This document shows, piece after piece, positions 6,001-12,000 of a stretch of 20,794 bases of DNA. The DNA is taken from assembly GCA_049513715.1 (NCBI GenBank), contig JBEKVV010000009.1, positions 1 to 20,794 of the forward strand. The letters run 5' to 3'. Each line of letters starts with the position of its first letter. Position 1 is the first letter of the stretch. Made by a program: the position numbers. This DNA is from Candidatus Bathyarchaeia archaeon (GTDB lineage Archaea; Thermoproteota; Bathyarchaeia; 40CM-2-53-6).

Positions 6001-9000
6001 TGCTTTGGTTTCACATTTCGCTTACCCCCTGTAAGTCTGAGCAGACTACATAGTGATTGTCAAGAAAGCTTTCAAAAAACAGAGCTTAGCTCACCGTAAG
6101 GATCCATAGTTTTTTCTTGTGTGGTTCTAGTAGTGCGGGCCAAGCATCTTAATTACATCATATGCCTCGACCAAGTATATTGGGGAAGGAAAGATGTCAA
6201 TATATTGGGTAAGGAGCTATTATGGAAAACCAGGGAAAGTTACAGAGTACCTAAAATGGTTGAACTCAGACCGGGCAAAGCTATTGGCTTCTAAAATAGA
6301 GAAGGAAACTGGCATCAAGTACGTTAACACTTACACCACGATTCAAAGCTTTGGCGACTATGATGCCGAGGATTGGTGGGTGGTGCCCGACTGGGCCTCC
6401 TTAGACAAGATGCGTGACTGCAACGCTTTAGCGGAATGGACCCTCAACACTTGGGACATGATCGACCAGACAAGGCCTCAAAGGTCAAGGATGATGCGAA
6501 CGGTCAGCGAAGTCAAGGTCATAGAGAAACCAGAGAAGTGGACTGAACTACTGTAGGACAGAACTAGTGCCCAATCGTCGGATCAATGAAAATGACGTTG
6601 GCCGGAGGCAAATGCACTCTTTCCACAAGGCACTCCCGAGAAGCCGACATTACCAAATGGGTGCGCAGCCAGCTACATGAAAGATGACCAGTGAGACGTA
6701 GTGCTTCTAGGTGAATGTTCTGAGCAGCCCTAGCGTGGGAACCTTACCACTAGAGTGCGTAAGCTAGCACCACCAAAACGCAGTTGCAACGATCTCGTTT
6801 CCCGAAATCCATTTCGTAGGTTATTCCGCGAGTAACATACCAGTTCCACTGGAATTTGAACCGTCAGTTCAGGCGTTATTTTGTGTGTGTGGGTCTAGTG
6901 GTGCGGGCGACAGAATTTGAACCGTCATGTTCGTTTGTGTAAGTACCTGCAAGACGTAGGATGTTTTCTGTGAACTCAGAGTCACTGAGCAATCATGATC
7001 TAGGGACGGACGAACGTGGGTCTAAACGCTCACAGGAAACGAAAACCCACGCAGAAAACTTGCTCCCAGAACTCAGCTTCATTGCGCAGAATCAGCGTGA
7101 ACTCTGCTTACTTAGGCATGTTTTGTTGGTGCGGGGGCGGGGATTCGAACCCCGGAACCCCTTCGGGACAGGAGCCTTTGGACGAAGCTTATCACTTCTC
7201 AGTCCTGCGCTTTCAAGGGCGCTTTCGAAGCCCACTTTGACCTGGCTGGGCGACCCCCGCACAACGGGAATAAACAGATTCGTGAACGCTATTAAGGTCA
7301 ACTGCGGGGCAAGTAGGTTCGAGGTGCCAGGCCTCGGATAGTTTCACCCGTCAGAGGCTGCGGTGCGCGAGTCGCAATCGGCAACCTGATAAAGATTAGC
7401 GAACCAAGCTTCAAAAAGCCAAACATACGTTACACGGAAGTGTCTGTGAAGTACTTGAAATTCGCTTTCGGGAAGAAACAGAAGGTCGACGAAGTCGAGC
7501 TGGACAACCTATTTACAGACCTGCAGGGCGTTCTGCTCAAACACCCGTTAGTTCCCAAGGCGAACGTTGACGCCCTCGTCTCTGAGTGGATCAACGACCT
7601 TCTCTTCTTAGCAGGAAAAATCACAGAAGAAGAACTTCAAGAAGCCATGCAATCCTTTGAAAAGCAAGGCGTCGAAGTCACCGCGGAAGCGGACAGCGGG
7701 GACGACAAAGACGACTCCGACGACGATGACGACGACGAATAACAGCATCCAGTCACAGCTGGCCCGGTATTGTTTCTACATATTGTAGCGCAAGCCTTGG
7801 CAAGCGAAAAGAAACCATGCGGTGCAAGCAAAACCTAGAACATGCACCATCAACAGAGAGAGCATAAAACCCGCATCATCCTCTTTCTTAGTGCAATATA
7901 TACTGTACTTGCGAAATCTTCTTGCAAGATCCATGTGGCCTTCAGGCGTAGAGGCATAGGTTGCCGGGCCGAGCGCCAATGATAATACAATACGTCTTCG
8001 AAATTTTCTACTTGACCCTCATTGCAACAATCATTGCCTTCATCCTAACATTCTACATGTTATCTGGAAAGCCACCCAAGAACAAGCAAGTCGATAATGA
8101 AAGCAAAGGCGAAAGTGTCGAACCACATGGAATGGAGAGGAGCGAGAGGAGCTGGCTCTACTTTCTCCTCGCGATTGTTTTGATCGGCAATCTCGTCACC
8201 CTGTCACCCCTAATTCCATCCGCTAGCTACGGAATGTGGACACAGTCGACTCCAGTCGAGACGATCACAATCCAAGTGGTGAACTATCACTTCATGATGC
8301 CACAGGTGCCGATCACCGTCCCCGTGGGAAAAGTCGTCGAGTTCATTCTCGTTTCTCATGATGTTACGTACGGGTTCGGGGTCTTCAGAAAAGATGGAAC
8401 TATGGTCTTCCAAATGCAAGTCGTTCCAGAACCATACAAGAATACTTTGCTATGGGTTTTTGACCAGCCCGGATTTTATGATGTGAGATCCACAGAGTAC
8501 AGTGGCCCACTAAGCCCGTTCATGTACCTTCCAGACGCGGTCCACGTGGAGGGTTGAGCGTTGAACGAAGATGAACGGAAAATTCTCACGTTAAGGTTCG
8601 TAGTTGTGTCCCTGCTTTTCTTGGGCCTCGGCGGAATAGAGGGCGTAATGATGCGTGGTAGGGTTGACAACCTTGATGTCCCCTTGCTAGGGTTGGATCC
8701 GCAGCACTTCTACGCCATGCTGACTGCGCATCCGTTCGTTTTGATCTACGGATTCGCATACATGGCCGTAATGGGCGCCTTCTACTTCCTCGTCCCGTAT
8801 GTGCTTGGCCGGGATATTTACAGCAAGAAGACTGCGGCCGCTTCATTCTGGCTCATGATTGTGGGGGTCATGATGGTTTGGACGACGTCGTTCGTTACTC
8901 ATTATGCTCCACTCTATACGCTCTACTGGCCGCTTCCCGTAGCGGTTGCGACAGCCGGATGGAATCCGGTCAGTATTCTTCCATTCGGAGTAGGCATGGT

Positions 9001-12000
9001 CCTCATCTTCGTGGCGGTGTTAGCGTTCTTCTTCAACATGTTCGCAACAGTCTTCCTTCCACTTCGCCCCGCCACCAGTTCCCGGCCGAAGTCGACTTTT
9101 ATCGCCGGGGAACTGCTTGTGACCGCATTCAGCTTGGACGTGCTCAGAGCCAAGATTCGCGGTGCCCCGAGCTACGTAAGTAAGGTCTTCGCGTTCCCAG
9201 TGTTCGTAGTAGCCGTTTTCAGGGGCTGCGTTGATACAACCATCAACGCACTCATCATGGGCGGGGTAGGAGTTCTACTCTCAACCTACGGAATCTCCTA
9301 CCTAATTCCATCCATTGCGCTTAGTCCAACGTTGATTGACCCGCTCGTCTACAAGAACGTGTTCTGGTGGGGGCTGGACATGATCGCTGACGGAAACGTG
9401 TTAATGTTCACAGCCGCAACATGGTACCTCATAATTCCCCTACTTTTGAATCGAAAACTCTTCGGCGAGAACGTCGTTAGATCTGTGATCCTCGCTGACC
9501 TCTTGGTTTCAATGGGAGTTTGGGGCCATCACGTGATGGCTGATACACCACAACCCCTCGGGCTTCTCGTTGAAGGCCAGATTGTAACATGGGGCGAGCT
9601 TGTTACAATGGGGTTGACAATATTCGCGGTGCTAATGACCCTGTGGCTAGCCCGTCCCGTTAAGTATACTGCGCCTTTGAAGTGGGTGCTCGTTTCCATC
9701 ATGGGCTACGGAATAGGTGGAACTGCTGGCATAATACAGGCCAATTATGCAGTGAACCGCTATTTCCACAACACGCAATGGGTCGTGGGAATCCACGCGC
9801 ACGTGCAACTGCTTCTTGGATTGGGCGCAACAATCTTCGCCGCCATCTACGCACTATTCCCTCTGCTAACTGGCAAACAACTCAACGAGCGACTCTCAAA
9901 TCTGCAACTCATCCTATGGACGGCTGGTGCTCTAGTGATGGGACTTAGCATGGGGGTAGCGGGGGTAAACGGAATGCTGAGACGCATGTTATACATCAAC
10001 GGCTTAGGCCCGTTCCAAGAATACATGAACGCCGCTCTCATCGGGGCCATTATCCTAGCCTCGGGGTACGGTGTTTTCCTATTGAATATCGTACGAGCCG
10101 TAGGCCTCAGAACACTCCTCAGCATATTCTACTCACCTCACAAACCAACTGTAGCAGCCTCAGTTGCCACCCACGCAAGCTGAAGAAGGGCCAACTCTTC
10201 TTTAGCTGAAGCTTCTAACTGCCTTCATGTGAGAACTAGATGGAACACAACCCCGAAACCGACCGGGCCCACCGGAGCTATTCTAGTGCCACAGGTCCGT
10301 AAGGTAAAGTATTGAGGGGTTGTGTTTTCGTTGCGTTTTGTAGGTGTGCTCTGTTAATCTGCCTTAGGAACCACATCCTCTCCACCCTTCGTGGATTACT
10401 TGCTTACGGCAAGTTACGAGCCTCCGGGTTTACCATGCGATAAACCACTGAGACTCGATACTAACTGGTTCAAACGAGAGCGCGAGAAGAGGAGGGCGCG
10501 GGACTTCTGCAACGCAGGTGACGGAATCACGTTGACAGGTAGAAGTGTATACACCCAACGTTTGGGTGTATACACCCGCGGATGGAAAGGTGCACCCAAA
10601 CATCAGGTGACTGTCACCTTGAAGCCCTCATGTTTCCTGCAGGGCGATAACACCCAATGATTGGGGGTTAACACCCAGTAGGGGGGTACTGCATAGGGAG
10701 CATTGCACCCAATCATCGGGTGCATTACACCTTGAGGCCCTCACCTGCCCCGCGGAGGGTGTACGAAACGACCGGTATTGTTTCTACATGTTGTGGCGCA
10801 AGCCGCTGATTCTCTTTAGTTGGTGGAGGGCTTAAGGTTGAGCCCGGAGCGGGTTTCCGTAAGTACTGTTTGTTCCGGTGGCGGTCGTTGATTCTCCACC
10901 TTTCAGGGATTAGTCGTAGCGACCAATATCTTAGCGGTGGGATAACCATGTTTTTTCGACGGTCTCGGTGAGGAATTAGCAAGTTGTTTCAAGTTGTTAT
11001 GTGGGAGCGTTGGAAGGTTACCCGCCAGTTAATGTCCATGGCTTTAGAACGATGCAGCGCGCAGGCGTCATGCCGCGGCCTTCAATGATTATCTCAAGTG
11101 CTCTGTGACCGCCGGTGTAGGGAACTACTCGCTCTGCCACCTTCTTCCTGCAGTAACACACGATCTTTTTTCCAATGATTTCATTCGCGCCCGGCATGAG
11201 CTACGCCTCCACTGTAAGGTCTTGCAGTTCTGCTGCTCGGCCTTCCTTTTCGAGTTTCCTGAGCGCCTCAAGAACGTCAAGAACGGAATAGCCGAGTTCT
11301 TTTGCAGCCTCATCCGGCCAGATGAGTCCTCCGCGCTCTCTCATGTACTGGTGAAGTTCCTGCTTCAACTTTCCCGAGCTTGTTTTGGCAACTGTATTGA
11401 GTTCGGATAGGCGGTGCCTCACCGCGTCCCGAACGAAATCACTTGAGTTTATGTACAGGCCAGTTCGCACAAGGCGTCTTATCTGGTCATACTCGACCGA
11501 TGAAAGCTTGGCCGCAACCTGCTTCGACAAGGCGATTACCTAATGTACACAGGTATACCGATGCAAATAAATCTCTCTTGGCAGAGCGAAACAAACCATT
11601 AGCCCAACAGCAGAACCAACTCCGCCCCAACCTCAACAACCAAACGAGAACAAGACACAACGCAACCCCCAACCGACGGGACCCAGCGGACCTATTTGGT
11701 GCTACAGGTCCGTAACGGTAAAGTATTTTAGAGCTGGGCCGGAACTGGCCGGAAGCACAGAGCTAACTTGGTGTAGTCATTGGGTCACAGGAAAGTTCAT
11801 GCACCGAAACGTGGTTCTCTCTCATTCCTGCCTAGGGGACGTGCTTCACGATGGGTAGGCAGGATCCGCTACTGGCCTGACGTTGAAGGGGGGCCGACAT
11901 TGCTCGCGTTTGCTGGATTCAAAGCCGGCATGACGTACGCGATAGCCCTAGACAACCGCGAAGGCTCCTTGACGTACGGGAAGGAAATCGTCGTCTCAAT

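Follow-up and report, generated by a model that had tools for sequence, protein, structure and literature searches.

Oxygen reductases of the A and B families of haem-copper oxidoreductases (HCOs) are marked by a His-Tyr cross-link in helix VI and by CuB on three His, and cytochrome c oxidases of these families by CuA in subunit II. In the nitric oxide reductases cNOR and qNOR, three His and a Glu bind FeB, and a cytochrome c or a fused N-terminal domain is present. Four further types (eNOR, bNOR, sNOR and nNOR) are, like gNOR, Tyr-less, near the B family and equipped with a cupredoxin-type subunit II; unlike them, only gNOR has been described with the active-site His replaced and the CuA ligands lost (PMC11214002). 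The definition of gNOR is an Asp replacing the active-site His, an absent Tyr and a CuA-less cupredoxin; conserved quinol-binding residues are a further mark, and NO reduction to N2O, with FeB in the active site, is only proposed, for the whole family, of which no member has been purified (PMC11214002). The genes were named norGH (PMC8906906), and Methylomirabilis has a two-gene gNOR (Damo_1118-1119, PMC6094997). The enzyme family is therefore already published; what is new here is the genomic context, namely the remnants of an A-type oxidase, the insertion site and the distribution across the genus.

The window, a stretch of 20,794 nucleotides from a Candidatus Bathyarchaeia archaeon, holds two ORFs at 7961-10183, both on the + strand and 3 bases apart. 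Judged by their sequences, they almost certainly encode a haem-copper enzyme of the gNOR family. The first ORF (7961..8557, 198 aa) corresponds to subunit II, a membrane-anchored cupredoxin without CuA. Translation probably begins with the ATG at 7979 (Met7), which matched the starts of the congeners' subunits II in an alignment. A profile search against TIGR02866 (CoxB) gave an E-value of 6e-5, far under the cut-off. When seven gNOR-type subunits II were aligned with one A-type CoxB, residues S177 to S181 (STEYS; 8489..8503, + strand) fell at the CuA CxxxC position, and Y137 occupied the upstream CuA His site. Subunit II contained no Cys at all, and RSTEYSG was aligned with ECTQFCG of the congener CoxB, just as the genome-wide survey's note had claimed for a partner cupredoxin without CuA cysteines.

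The second ORF (8561..10183, + strand, 540 aa) encodes subunit I with the HCO fold (PF00115 COX1, E 9e-65). All five remaining metal-binding His were kept: the low-spin haem ligand H57 (8729..8731), the two remaining non-haem metal ligands H323-H324 (9527..9532) and the high-spin and low-spin haem ligands H412 and H414 (9794..9802), all on the + strand and invariant in the alignment, A-type sequences included. Helix VI, by comparison, had neither His nor Tyr. Its motif WWGLDMIADG (9365..9394, + strand) sits where A-type enzymes have HPEVY, and D273 (9377-9379) and D277 (9389-9391) together stand in for the His and the Tyr of the A-type motif. All 30 aligned sequences showed both Asp unchanged; these were the query, five loci of relatives and 24 sequences hand-picked out of 120 listed matches. 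The register was counted ungapped from W269; since automatic aligners place gaps in that stretch, the Asp at the His site is tentatively either D273 or D277. Tyr was absent from residues 265-288 and from 290 up to the His pair 323-324, and the 30-sequence alignment had no invariant Tyr between 290 and 323-324.

Because the His-Tyr pair is missing, canonical O2 reduction is excluded for this pair. Neither the cross-link and three-His CuB of the A and B families nor the three His, Glu and extra domain of cNOR and qNOR were found, while the haem ligands, the Asp for His, the lack of a cross-linking Tyr and the CuA-less cupredoxin were. All sequence features amenable to testing supported the survey's assignment to the gNOR type rather than to aa3, including its reading of helix VI. 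The predicted structure of subunit I (pLDDT 79) gave Z-scores of 25-40 to ten HCO/NOR chains, with the following row at 9.3; solved NORs scored 36 and 25. Fold searches cannot tell HCO families apart. A fragment search with helix VI-VII of subunit I matched no HCO.

With two canonical catalytic residues and CuA gone, the genes could also be read as a decayed oxidase that no longer works. This is hardly credible, as both frames are open and the same substitutions recur, at 41-86% identity, in sequences that range from archaeal ones to those of Methylomirabilis and Sulfurimonas, with at least 596 confirmed stretches in species genomes.

The bathyarchaeal pair shares with the described gNOR the Asp for His, the missing Tyr, the CuA-less subunit II and the two-gene unit. 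It differs in that PMC11214002 names one Asp, whereas two are invariant here and in the aligned sequences. The host also differs from the described setting: no nitrite reductase was found, and an A-type oxidase has been freshly deleted. A pair from Methylomirabilis sp., linked to the named gNOR through genus and motif rather than locus tag, shared 43% identity over 526 residues as well as the motif and gene order. The A-family (aa3-type) CoxBA-CtaA-CoxC of the same genus shares the fold of subunit I and the five His at 24% identity, but has HPEVY, CuA cysteines and subunit III, which the gNOR pair lacks. With cNOR and qNOR the pair has in common the missing Tyr, a carboxylate one turn past the helix VI ligand and NO chemistry, the latter as proposed for gNOR; in place of three His and a Glu there would be two His and an Asp, with a cupredoxin as partner. 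A preprint (bioRxiv 10.1101/592808) states a His-to-Glu haem ligand for gNOR, which was not seen in the bathyarchaeal subunit I. Passages of PMC3362086, PMC11696919, PMC10833072 and bioRxiv 2025.01.07.631734 contributed nothing further.

The genome (G000) is 99.4% complete and 8.79% contaminated, in 11 contigs. As the survey had claimed, it has a single haem-copper subunit: PF00115 had one match at E<=1, subunit I of the gNOR pair. The survey had also raised the possibility that an A- or B-type subunit I lies in a contig gap. This question is largely answered, as the A-type oxidase was lost by recent deletion. Its operon is present as deleted remnants in the middle of contig C1 (896 kb), and contigs from three of four public runs (X8, X17 and X20, which may themselves be the source of the DNA) bridged the deleted form with zero differences. 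Run X15 contained a low-depth variant with undeleted junctions that continued into coxA and coxC. This variant, the division into 11 contigs and the second, fused A-type copy of some congeners (G010 and G016) could be taken to mean that the assembly overlooked a complete A- or B-type oxidase and that the organism has another haem-copper enzyme besides gNOR. Given the completeness, the single PF00115 match and the ancestral locus deleted mid-contig with identical contigs across it, we regard this as very unlikely.

The other respiratory genes named by the survey were located on C1: a CydA/CydA'-like pair (C1:83808-85980, two adjacent PF01654 matches), cyoE (C1:756091) and a ctaA-like gene (C1:133808). 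CydAA' enzymes (qOR4a/4b) combine a CydA bearing haem, quinol-site and proton-channel residues with a second CydA-like subunit. The CydAA'-like pair kept His, Glu and the Lys/Glu quinol motif, but a Lys stood at the position of the haem-binding Met, in a weakly aligned stretch. As the A-type operon is deleted, O2 reduction in this genome would rest on the CydAA'-like pair. The CuA-like protein is present on C4, but its tie to an oxidase did not stand: it belongs to an operon with NrfC/NrfD-like genes. A 'cox1' match alone would mislabel the genome as an aa3 aerobe, when it has lost aa3 and holds a presumed N2O-forming enzyme.

Across the genus, 9 of 23 genomes carried gNOR, in two subtypes (~86% and ~50% identity). 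This corrects the earlier count, which was of copies at 86-87% identity in 3 of 10 congeners. The distant subunit I noted in other congeners was also present, but it was a canonical A-type with HPEVY. The A-type locus was kept in 18 of 22 congeners; accordingly, the hint that the 'aa3' oxidase of related peat lineages, as it is called in passages of PMC11619403, is a misreading was unsupported genus-wide, and for most members of the genus the 'aa3' label is correct. Two other carriers of gNOR, and one genome without it, likewise lacked the A-type operon, with different breakpoints. In G001, the syntenic A-type site was looked for and not located. The genus hence offers a natural comparison for the role of gNOR, with genomes that have A-type only, both, gNOR only or neither.

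Upstream of rpl3, the pair forms a cassette inserted at a variable site. The site is anchored on the left by a small acidic gene (7440..7742, + strand) and on the right by the gene for ribosomal protein L3 (rpl3, named from sequence; 11780..12790, + strand). In 7 of the 14 congeners with both genes on one contig, the two lie at most 131 nt apart. Here, the pair is flanked by two copies of a 33-nt direct repeat (7764..7796 and 10772..10804), which are 94% identical and lie 3008 nt apart. The GC content of the pair (0.50-0.53) equals that of the right flank, and therefore composition gives no sign of recent transfer. ARAGORN and Rfam scans near the locus gave no match. Sigma-70 promoter scans are inapplicable to archaea.

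NO reduction is the probable activity of the pair. Electrons would pass from a membrane quinol-type carrier to the low-spin haem and on to the high-spin haem and a non-haem iron, which may be bound by H323, H324 and D273 and/or D277. Two NO would be joined into N2O in a two-electron step for which no Tyr radical would be needed. Searches of the genome found no NirK, NirS, molybdopterin reductase (Nar/Nap) or prismane/Hcp, and no flavodiiron domain above the cut-off. With neither a nitrite nor a nitrate reductase among the matches, the cell would take its NO from the surroundings, and scavenging of outside NO appears likelier than denitrification. The supply could be neighbours or abiotic nitrite breakdown; passages of PMC8276178 state that soil nitrite can give NO abiotically. 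As a whole, we favour, with some reserve, a cassette-borne gNOR that reduces outside NO to N2O for scavenging or detoxification, and perhaps serves as an electron sink too. Two points from PMC11214002 count against it: gNORs are said to come mainly from sulfidic settings, and the mimic cited for gNOR is a 2-His-1-Glu myoglobin with no Asp site. Moreover, genomic context gave no direct link to NO, since NirK occurred in only 2 of the 9 gNOR carriers of the genus. MqnA/MqnD were not found in this genome, and two MenA-like prenyltransferases were both under the cut-off. The NosZ search gave 0 of 61, but its control was also without a match anywhere, so it was uninformative; two small cupredoxins matched only the CuA end of NosZ, far under the cut-off.

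NirK was more frequent in genomes without gNOR (7 of 14; five above the cut-off, two split) than in carriers. This partly complementary pattern, drawn from related and partly incomplete genomes, would suit gNOR as a respiratory sink for NO within a denitrification chain divided among several organisms, with growth on NO from NirK-bearing relatives or other microbes. PMC11214002 credits gNOR with no proton channel, but further invariant polar residues of subunit I in the 30-sequence alignment (D225, Y289, D313, S317, T343 and E346) could make a proton path, and a preprint reports conserved gNOR residues that do not map onto the B-family channel. We consider such a chain unlikely.

The enzyme might instead catalyse a different reaction, for example reduce O2 without a Tyr at a carboxylate site of di-iron-like character, and replace the lost A-type enzyme; this alternative is doubtful and has a lower probability. 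The A-type locus was missing in 4 of 9 gNOR carriers versus 1 of 14 non-carriers (one-sided Fisher test by hand, ~0.056), and G020, G032 and G036 (88-93% complete) had gNOR but gave no match to A-type, CydA or NirK. However, 5 of 9 carriers retained the A-type, G002 lost it while being without gNOR, and CydAA' was found in G000 and G021. A His-Tyr cofactor is required by every HCO so far characterised as an O2 reductase, and eNOR, which has no such Tyr, failed to reduce O2 (PMC11214002). The cyoE and ctaA-like genes were kept in this genome, but ctaA does not imply O2 reduction because eNOR too uses haem a (PMC11214002). It is similarly doubtful, and slightly more so, that gNOR is a terminal respiratory enzyme that permitted the loss of the A-type, be it as an O2 reductase that works without Tyr on an iron held by two His and two Asp, or as the sole acceptor for growth on outside NO. 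If this were true, the repeated recent loss of aa3 in carriers, polymorphic in one run, would be a swap underway.

If gNOR does reduce NO, as favoured here, some soil and peat Bathyarchaeia would be sinks for NO and sources of N2O that have gone unnoticed. The 24 DNA runs carrying the sequence were all from peat or wetland, and they were not used as independent habitat evidence because all 24 were flagged as possible sources. No RNA run was listed as carrying the locus. In support of the NO reading, 14 of the 16 genomes of the genus that have gNOR or NirK contained hemerythrin-like genes, against 0 of the 7 with neither, in a post hoc grouping of non-independent kin in which four of the seven negative genomes were at most 83% complete. 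A hemerythrin-like gene adjoins gNOR in G020 and G032, while that of G000 is on another contig.

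The genome (2.79 Mb in 11 contigs, of which C9 is the window; 99.4% complete, 8.79% contaminated) gave a single PF00115 match at E≤1, confirming the view of the genome-wide survey's note that it has one haem-copper oxidase (HCO) subunit I. This gene (8561–10183, + strand; PF00115, E 9e-65) follows that of subunit II, a cupredoxin-like protein (7961–8557, + strand; TIGR02866, E 6e-5), and no NCBIfam oxidase model matched the pair up to its own cut-off. When the structure model of subunit I (pLDDT 79, from a 30-row alignment) was compared with solved structures, ten HCO/NOR chains were found at Z 25–40, and the next row had Z 9.3.

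The active site was read from 30 aligned subunits I (the query, those of 5 relatives' loci and 24 chosen from 120 listed matches). H57, H323, H324, H412 and H414 were invariant, and D273 and D277 of the WWGLDxIADG motif were likewise kept in 30/30. HPEVY was found in all 14 A-type subunits I (canonical aa3 oxygen-reducing oxidase) of relatives. Aligners gapped helix VI, setting the canonical His against L272 in some cases and against D277 in others. The invariant Trp that precedes the canonical His by four residues is matched by W269, and an ungapped count from the latter puts D273 at the His site and D277 at the Tyr site, with one inserted residue needed further on; residues 261–296 form a single helix in the model. 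We infer that this is the preferable register. Whichever register is used, residues 265–288 hold no His and no Tyr, and no Tyr has been relocated to helix VII; the earlier claim that the helix VI His ligand is replaced and the cross-linking Tyr is gone thus stands. The same applies to the partner, described as a cupredoxin without CuA cysteines: subunit II has no Cys at all, and comparison with a congener's CoxB puts S177 and S181 at the CuA cysteine sites and Y137 at a CuA His site.

The gNOR family is already known, archaea included. Passages of PMC11214002 define it by three marks (Asp replacing one of the active-site His, lack of the Tyr, and a cupredoxin devoid of CuA), count it in 156 GTDB genomes of Bacteria and Archaea, propose quinol as electron donor and present the activity as a proposal without an assay, citing a 2-His-1-Glu myoglobin as mimic. 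A species-genome scan found at least 596 stretches related to gNOR subunit I; the best 80 of these include Aigarchaeota, Geothermarchaeota, Sulfurimonas, Bacteroidota and a Methylomirabilis sp., and the closest named matches to our gene (84–87% identity) are labelled Bathyarchaeia. A two-gene gNOR is reported in passages on Methylomirabilis (PMC6094997, PMC8906906). The Methylomirabilis sp. pair is 43% identical to ours and shares both motif and gene order, which by proxy suggests a place in the gNOR clade.

A class-wide profile search (E≤1e-60) identified gNOR in 13 of 401 genomes: 9/23 in the genus, three more in the family and one outside. Two subtypes occur, with ~86% (G018, G021) and ~50% (G001, G020, G032, G036) identity to the query. 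The survey had counted 86–87% identical copies in three of ten congeners and a distant subunit I in others. Copies at ~86% were indeed found in G018 and G021, but carriers number nine of 23 and include the second subtype; the differing subunit I is specifically A-type. Right after the low-spin haem His, second-subtype copies have Glu in some and Gln in others (L037:9478–11094, L027:1468–3081), and G036 has two such copies. No published report of gNOR in Bathyarchaeia was found; subscription papers were outside the search, and Dataset S6 of PMC11214002 may list such genomes.

The main interest of the case lies in what surrounds gNOR, as the A-type oxidase has been lost repeatedly and recently. 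The intact order in G014 and G018 (gene names assigned from sequence) is aminotransferase, esterase, transporter-like gene, coxB, coxA, ctaA, an opposite-strand hypothetical gene, coxC and, further on, an inositol-phosphate synthase gene. The same anchor genes are present on contig C1 (896 kb) of our genome. Between them remain a 32-codon end of coxA (C1:315304–315399, 66% identity), a few ctaA codons, the hypothetical gene and the frameshifted first third of coxC (C1:314098–314371), and nothing more of the operon. The survey had allowed for an A-type subunit I in a contig gap; as the locus lies in mid-contig as deleted remnants, the oxidase is lost, not hidden. Contigs of sequencing runs X8, X17 and X20, from which the genome may itself derive, span the relic unbroken with zero differing letters. 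In run X15, contigs end at both deletion junctions, and the loose ends, translated by hand, read on into the parts of coxC (ALGPFPV) and coxA (QYALPNL) that the relic lacks; the only undeleted-end record with a depth shown had 8.7 vs ~209. A close minor variant in X15 thus seems to retain undeleted sequence, meaning that the loss is recent. The same deletion cuts a membrane-protein-like frame with an internal stop (L050 ~11390–11730 on C1, + strand; read by eye) that lies between the esterase and the remnant of coxA.

Across the genus, A-type coxC is present in 18/22 congeners and absent from G001, G002, G020 and G021. For three of these, the carriers G020 and G021 and the non-carrier G002, reading of the syntenic site showed that coxBA and coxC are gone mid-contig, with different remains in each. 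The loss in G021 is a separate one because its neighbouring proteins are near-identical to those of G018, which retains the operon. The A-type oxidase is missing from 4/9 carriers vs 1/14 non-carriers (one-sided Fisher ~0.056, calculated by hand on kin that are not independent). G002 (99% complete) has no HCO, CydA or NirK match, and only ctaA is left at its A-type site (L178, G002:C17). According to passages of PMC11619403 and PMC10321748, soil and peat lineages of this kind have an aa3 or cytochrome c oxidase; the word 'nitric' is absent from both main texts, and the survey had already noted that the former calls the oxidase aa3 and does not mention nitric oxide. The published aa3 call is correct for most of the genus.

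The gNOR pair is an insertion. From the small acidic gene (7440–7742) to rpl3 (starting at 11780), the distance is 89–131 nt in 7 of the 14 congeners with both on one contig, four of these 7 being gNOR carriers, and 0.5–19 kb in the other 7. The interval ahead of rpl3 (7742–11780 in the window), ranging from 89 nt to ~19 kb across the genus, is an insertion hot spot. In our genome it measures 4 kb, and the pair is flanked there by 33-nt direct repeats (94% identical); in G001, G018, G020 and G113 the pair lies in four other neighbourhoods. Neither integrase nor transposase genes were seen next to the pair. Just past the pair, 10286–10302 copies the rpl3 upstream sequence (11699–11715), as if the site had received repeated insertions. 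The stretch 10545–10743 holds a palindrome cluster and a 40-nt direct repeat (unit CACCCAA/TTGGGTG).

We infer that the pair would act as an acquired membrane NO reductase. Its active site would combine haem and a non-haem iron held by two His and one or two Asp, a membrane carrier pool would supply electrons, and outside NO would be removed as N2O, the host having probably shifted from the low-affinity aa3 oxidase to CydAA' alone. Passages of bioRxiv 2021.01.16.426971 describe CydAA' as an archaeal O2 reductase. Most catalytic residues are kept in the CydA/CydA'-like pair; in its CydA (L067:1291–2979, C1), Lys apparently occupies the site of the Met haem ligand known from solved CydA, although the alignment is weak there. 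As for the possible electron donor, MqnA/MqnD were not found in the genome, and its two MenA-like genes are both under the cut-off. An operon on contig C4 (L032:9552–14534), 3' of suf and superoxide dismutase genes, encodes two cupredoxins, one of them CuA-like, together with NrfC/DsrO-like and NrfD/QrcD-like proteins; it has no gene for a molybdopterin subunit. Small cupredoxins (L032:9552–10229, L051:9149–9748) match NosZ models at the CuA end only; nosZ calls made for this lineage could stem from proteins of this type.

Profile searches of the genome, with positive controls in each, found no NirK, cytochrome d1 domain, Nar/Nap-type molybdopterin reductase or prismane/Hcp, and no flavodiiron domain above the cut-off. 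NirK is present in 2/9 carriers vs 7/14 non-carriers (split in 2 of the 7). According to passages of PMC8276178, abiotic conversion of nitrite to NO is possible in soil.

Hemerythrin-like genes occur in 9/9 carriers, 5/7 NirK-only genomes and 0/7 with neither (a post hoc grouping). They adjoin nirK in six genomes and gNOR in G020 and G032; in our genome they are on a separate contig from gNOR. Hemerythrin-like proteins often serve in NO stress.

Elsewhere in the window, 7090–7270 (− strand) holds a tRNA-like gene that ends in CCA and probably contains introns; ARAGORN and Rfam missed it. Copies resembling its 3' end at 6852–6927 suggest an integration site, and GC is lower at 1000–6900. At 12982–16454 (− strand) lie two paired genes whose sequences are Mre11-like and Rad50-like.
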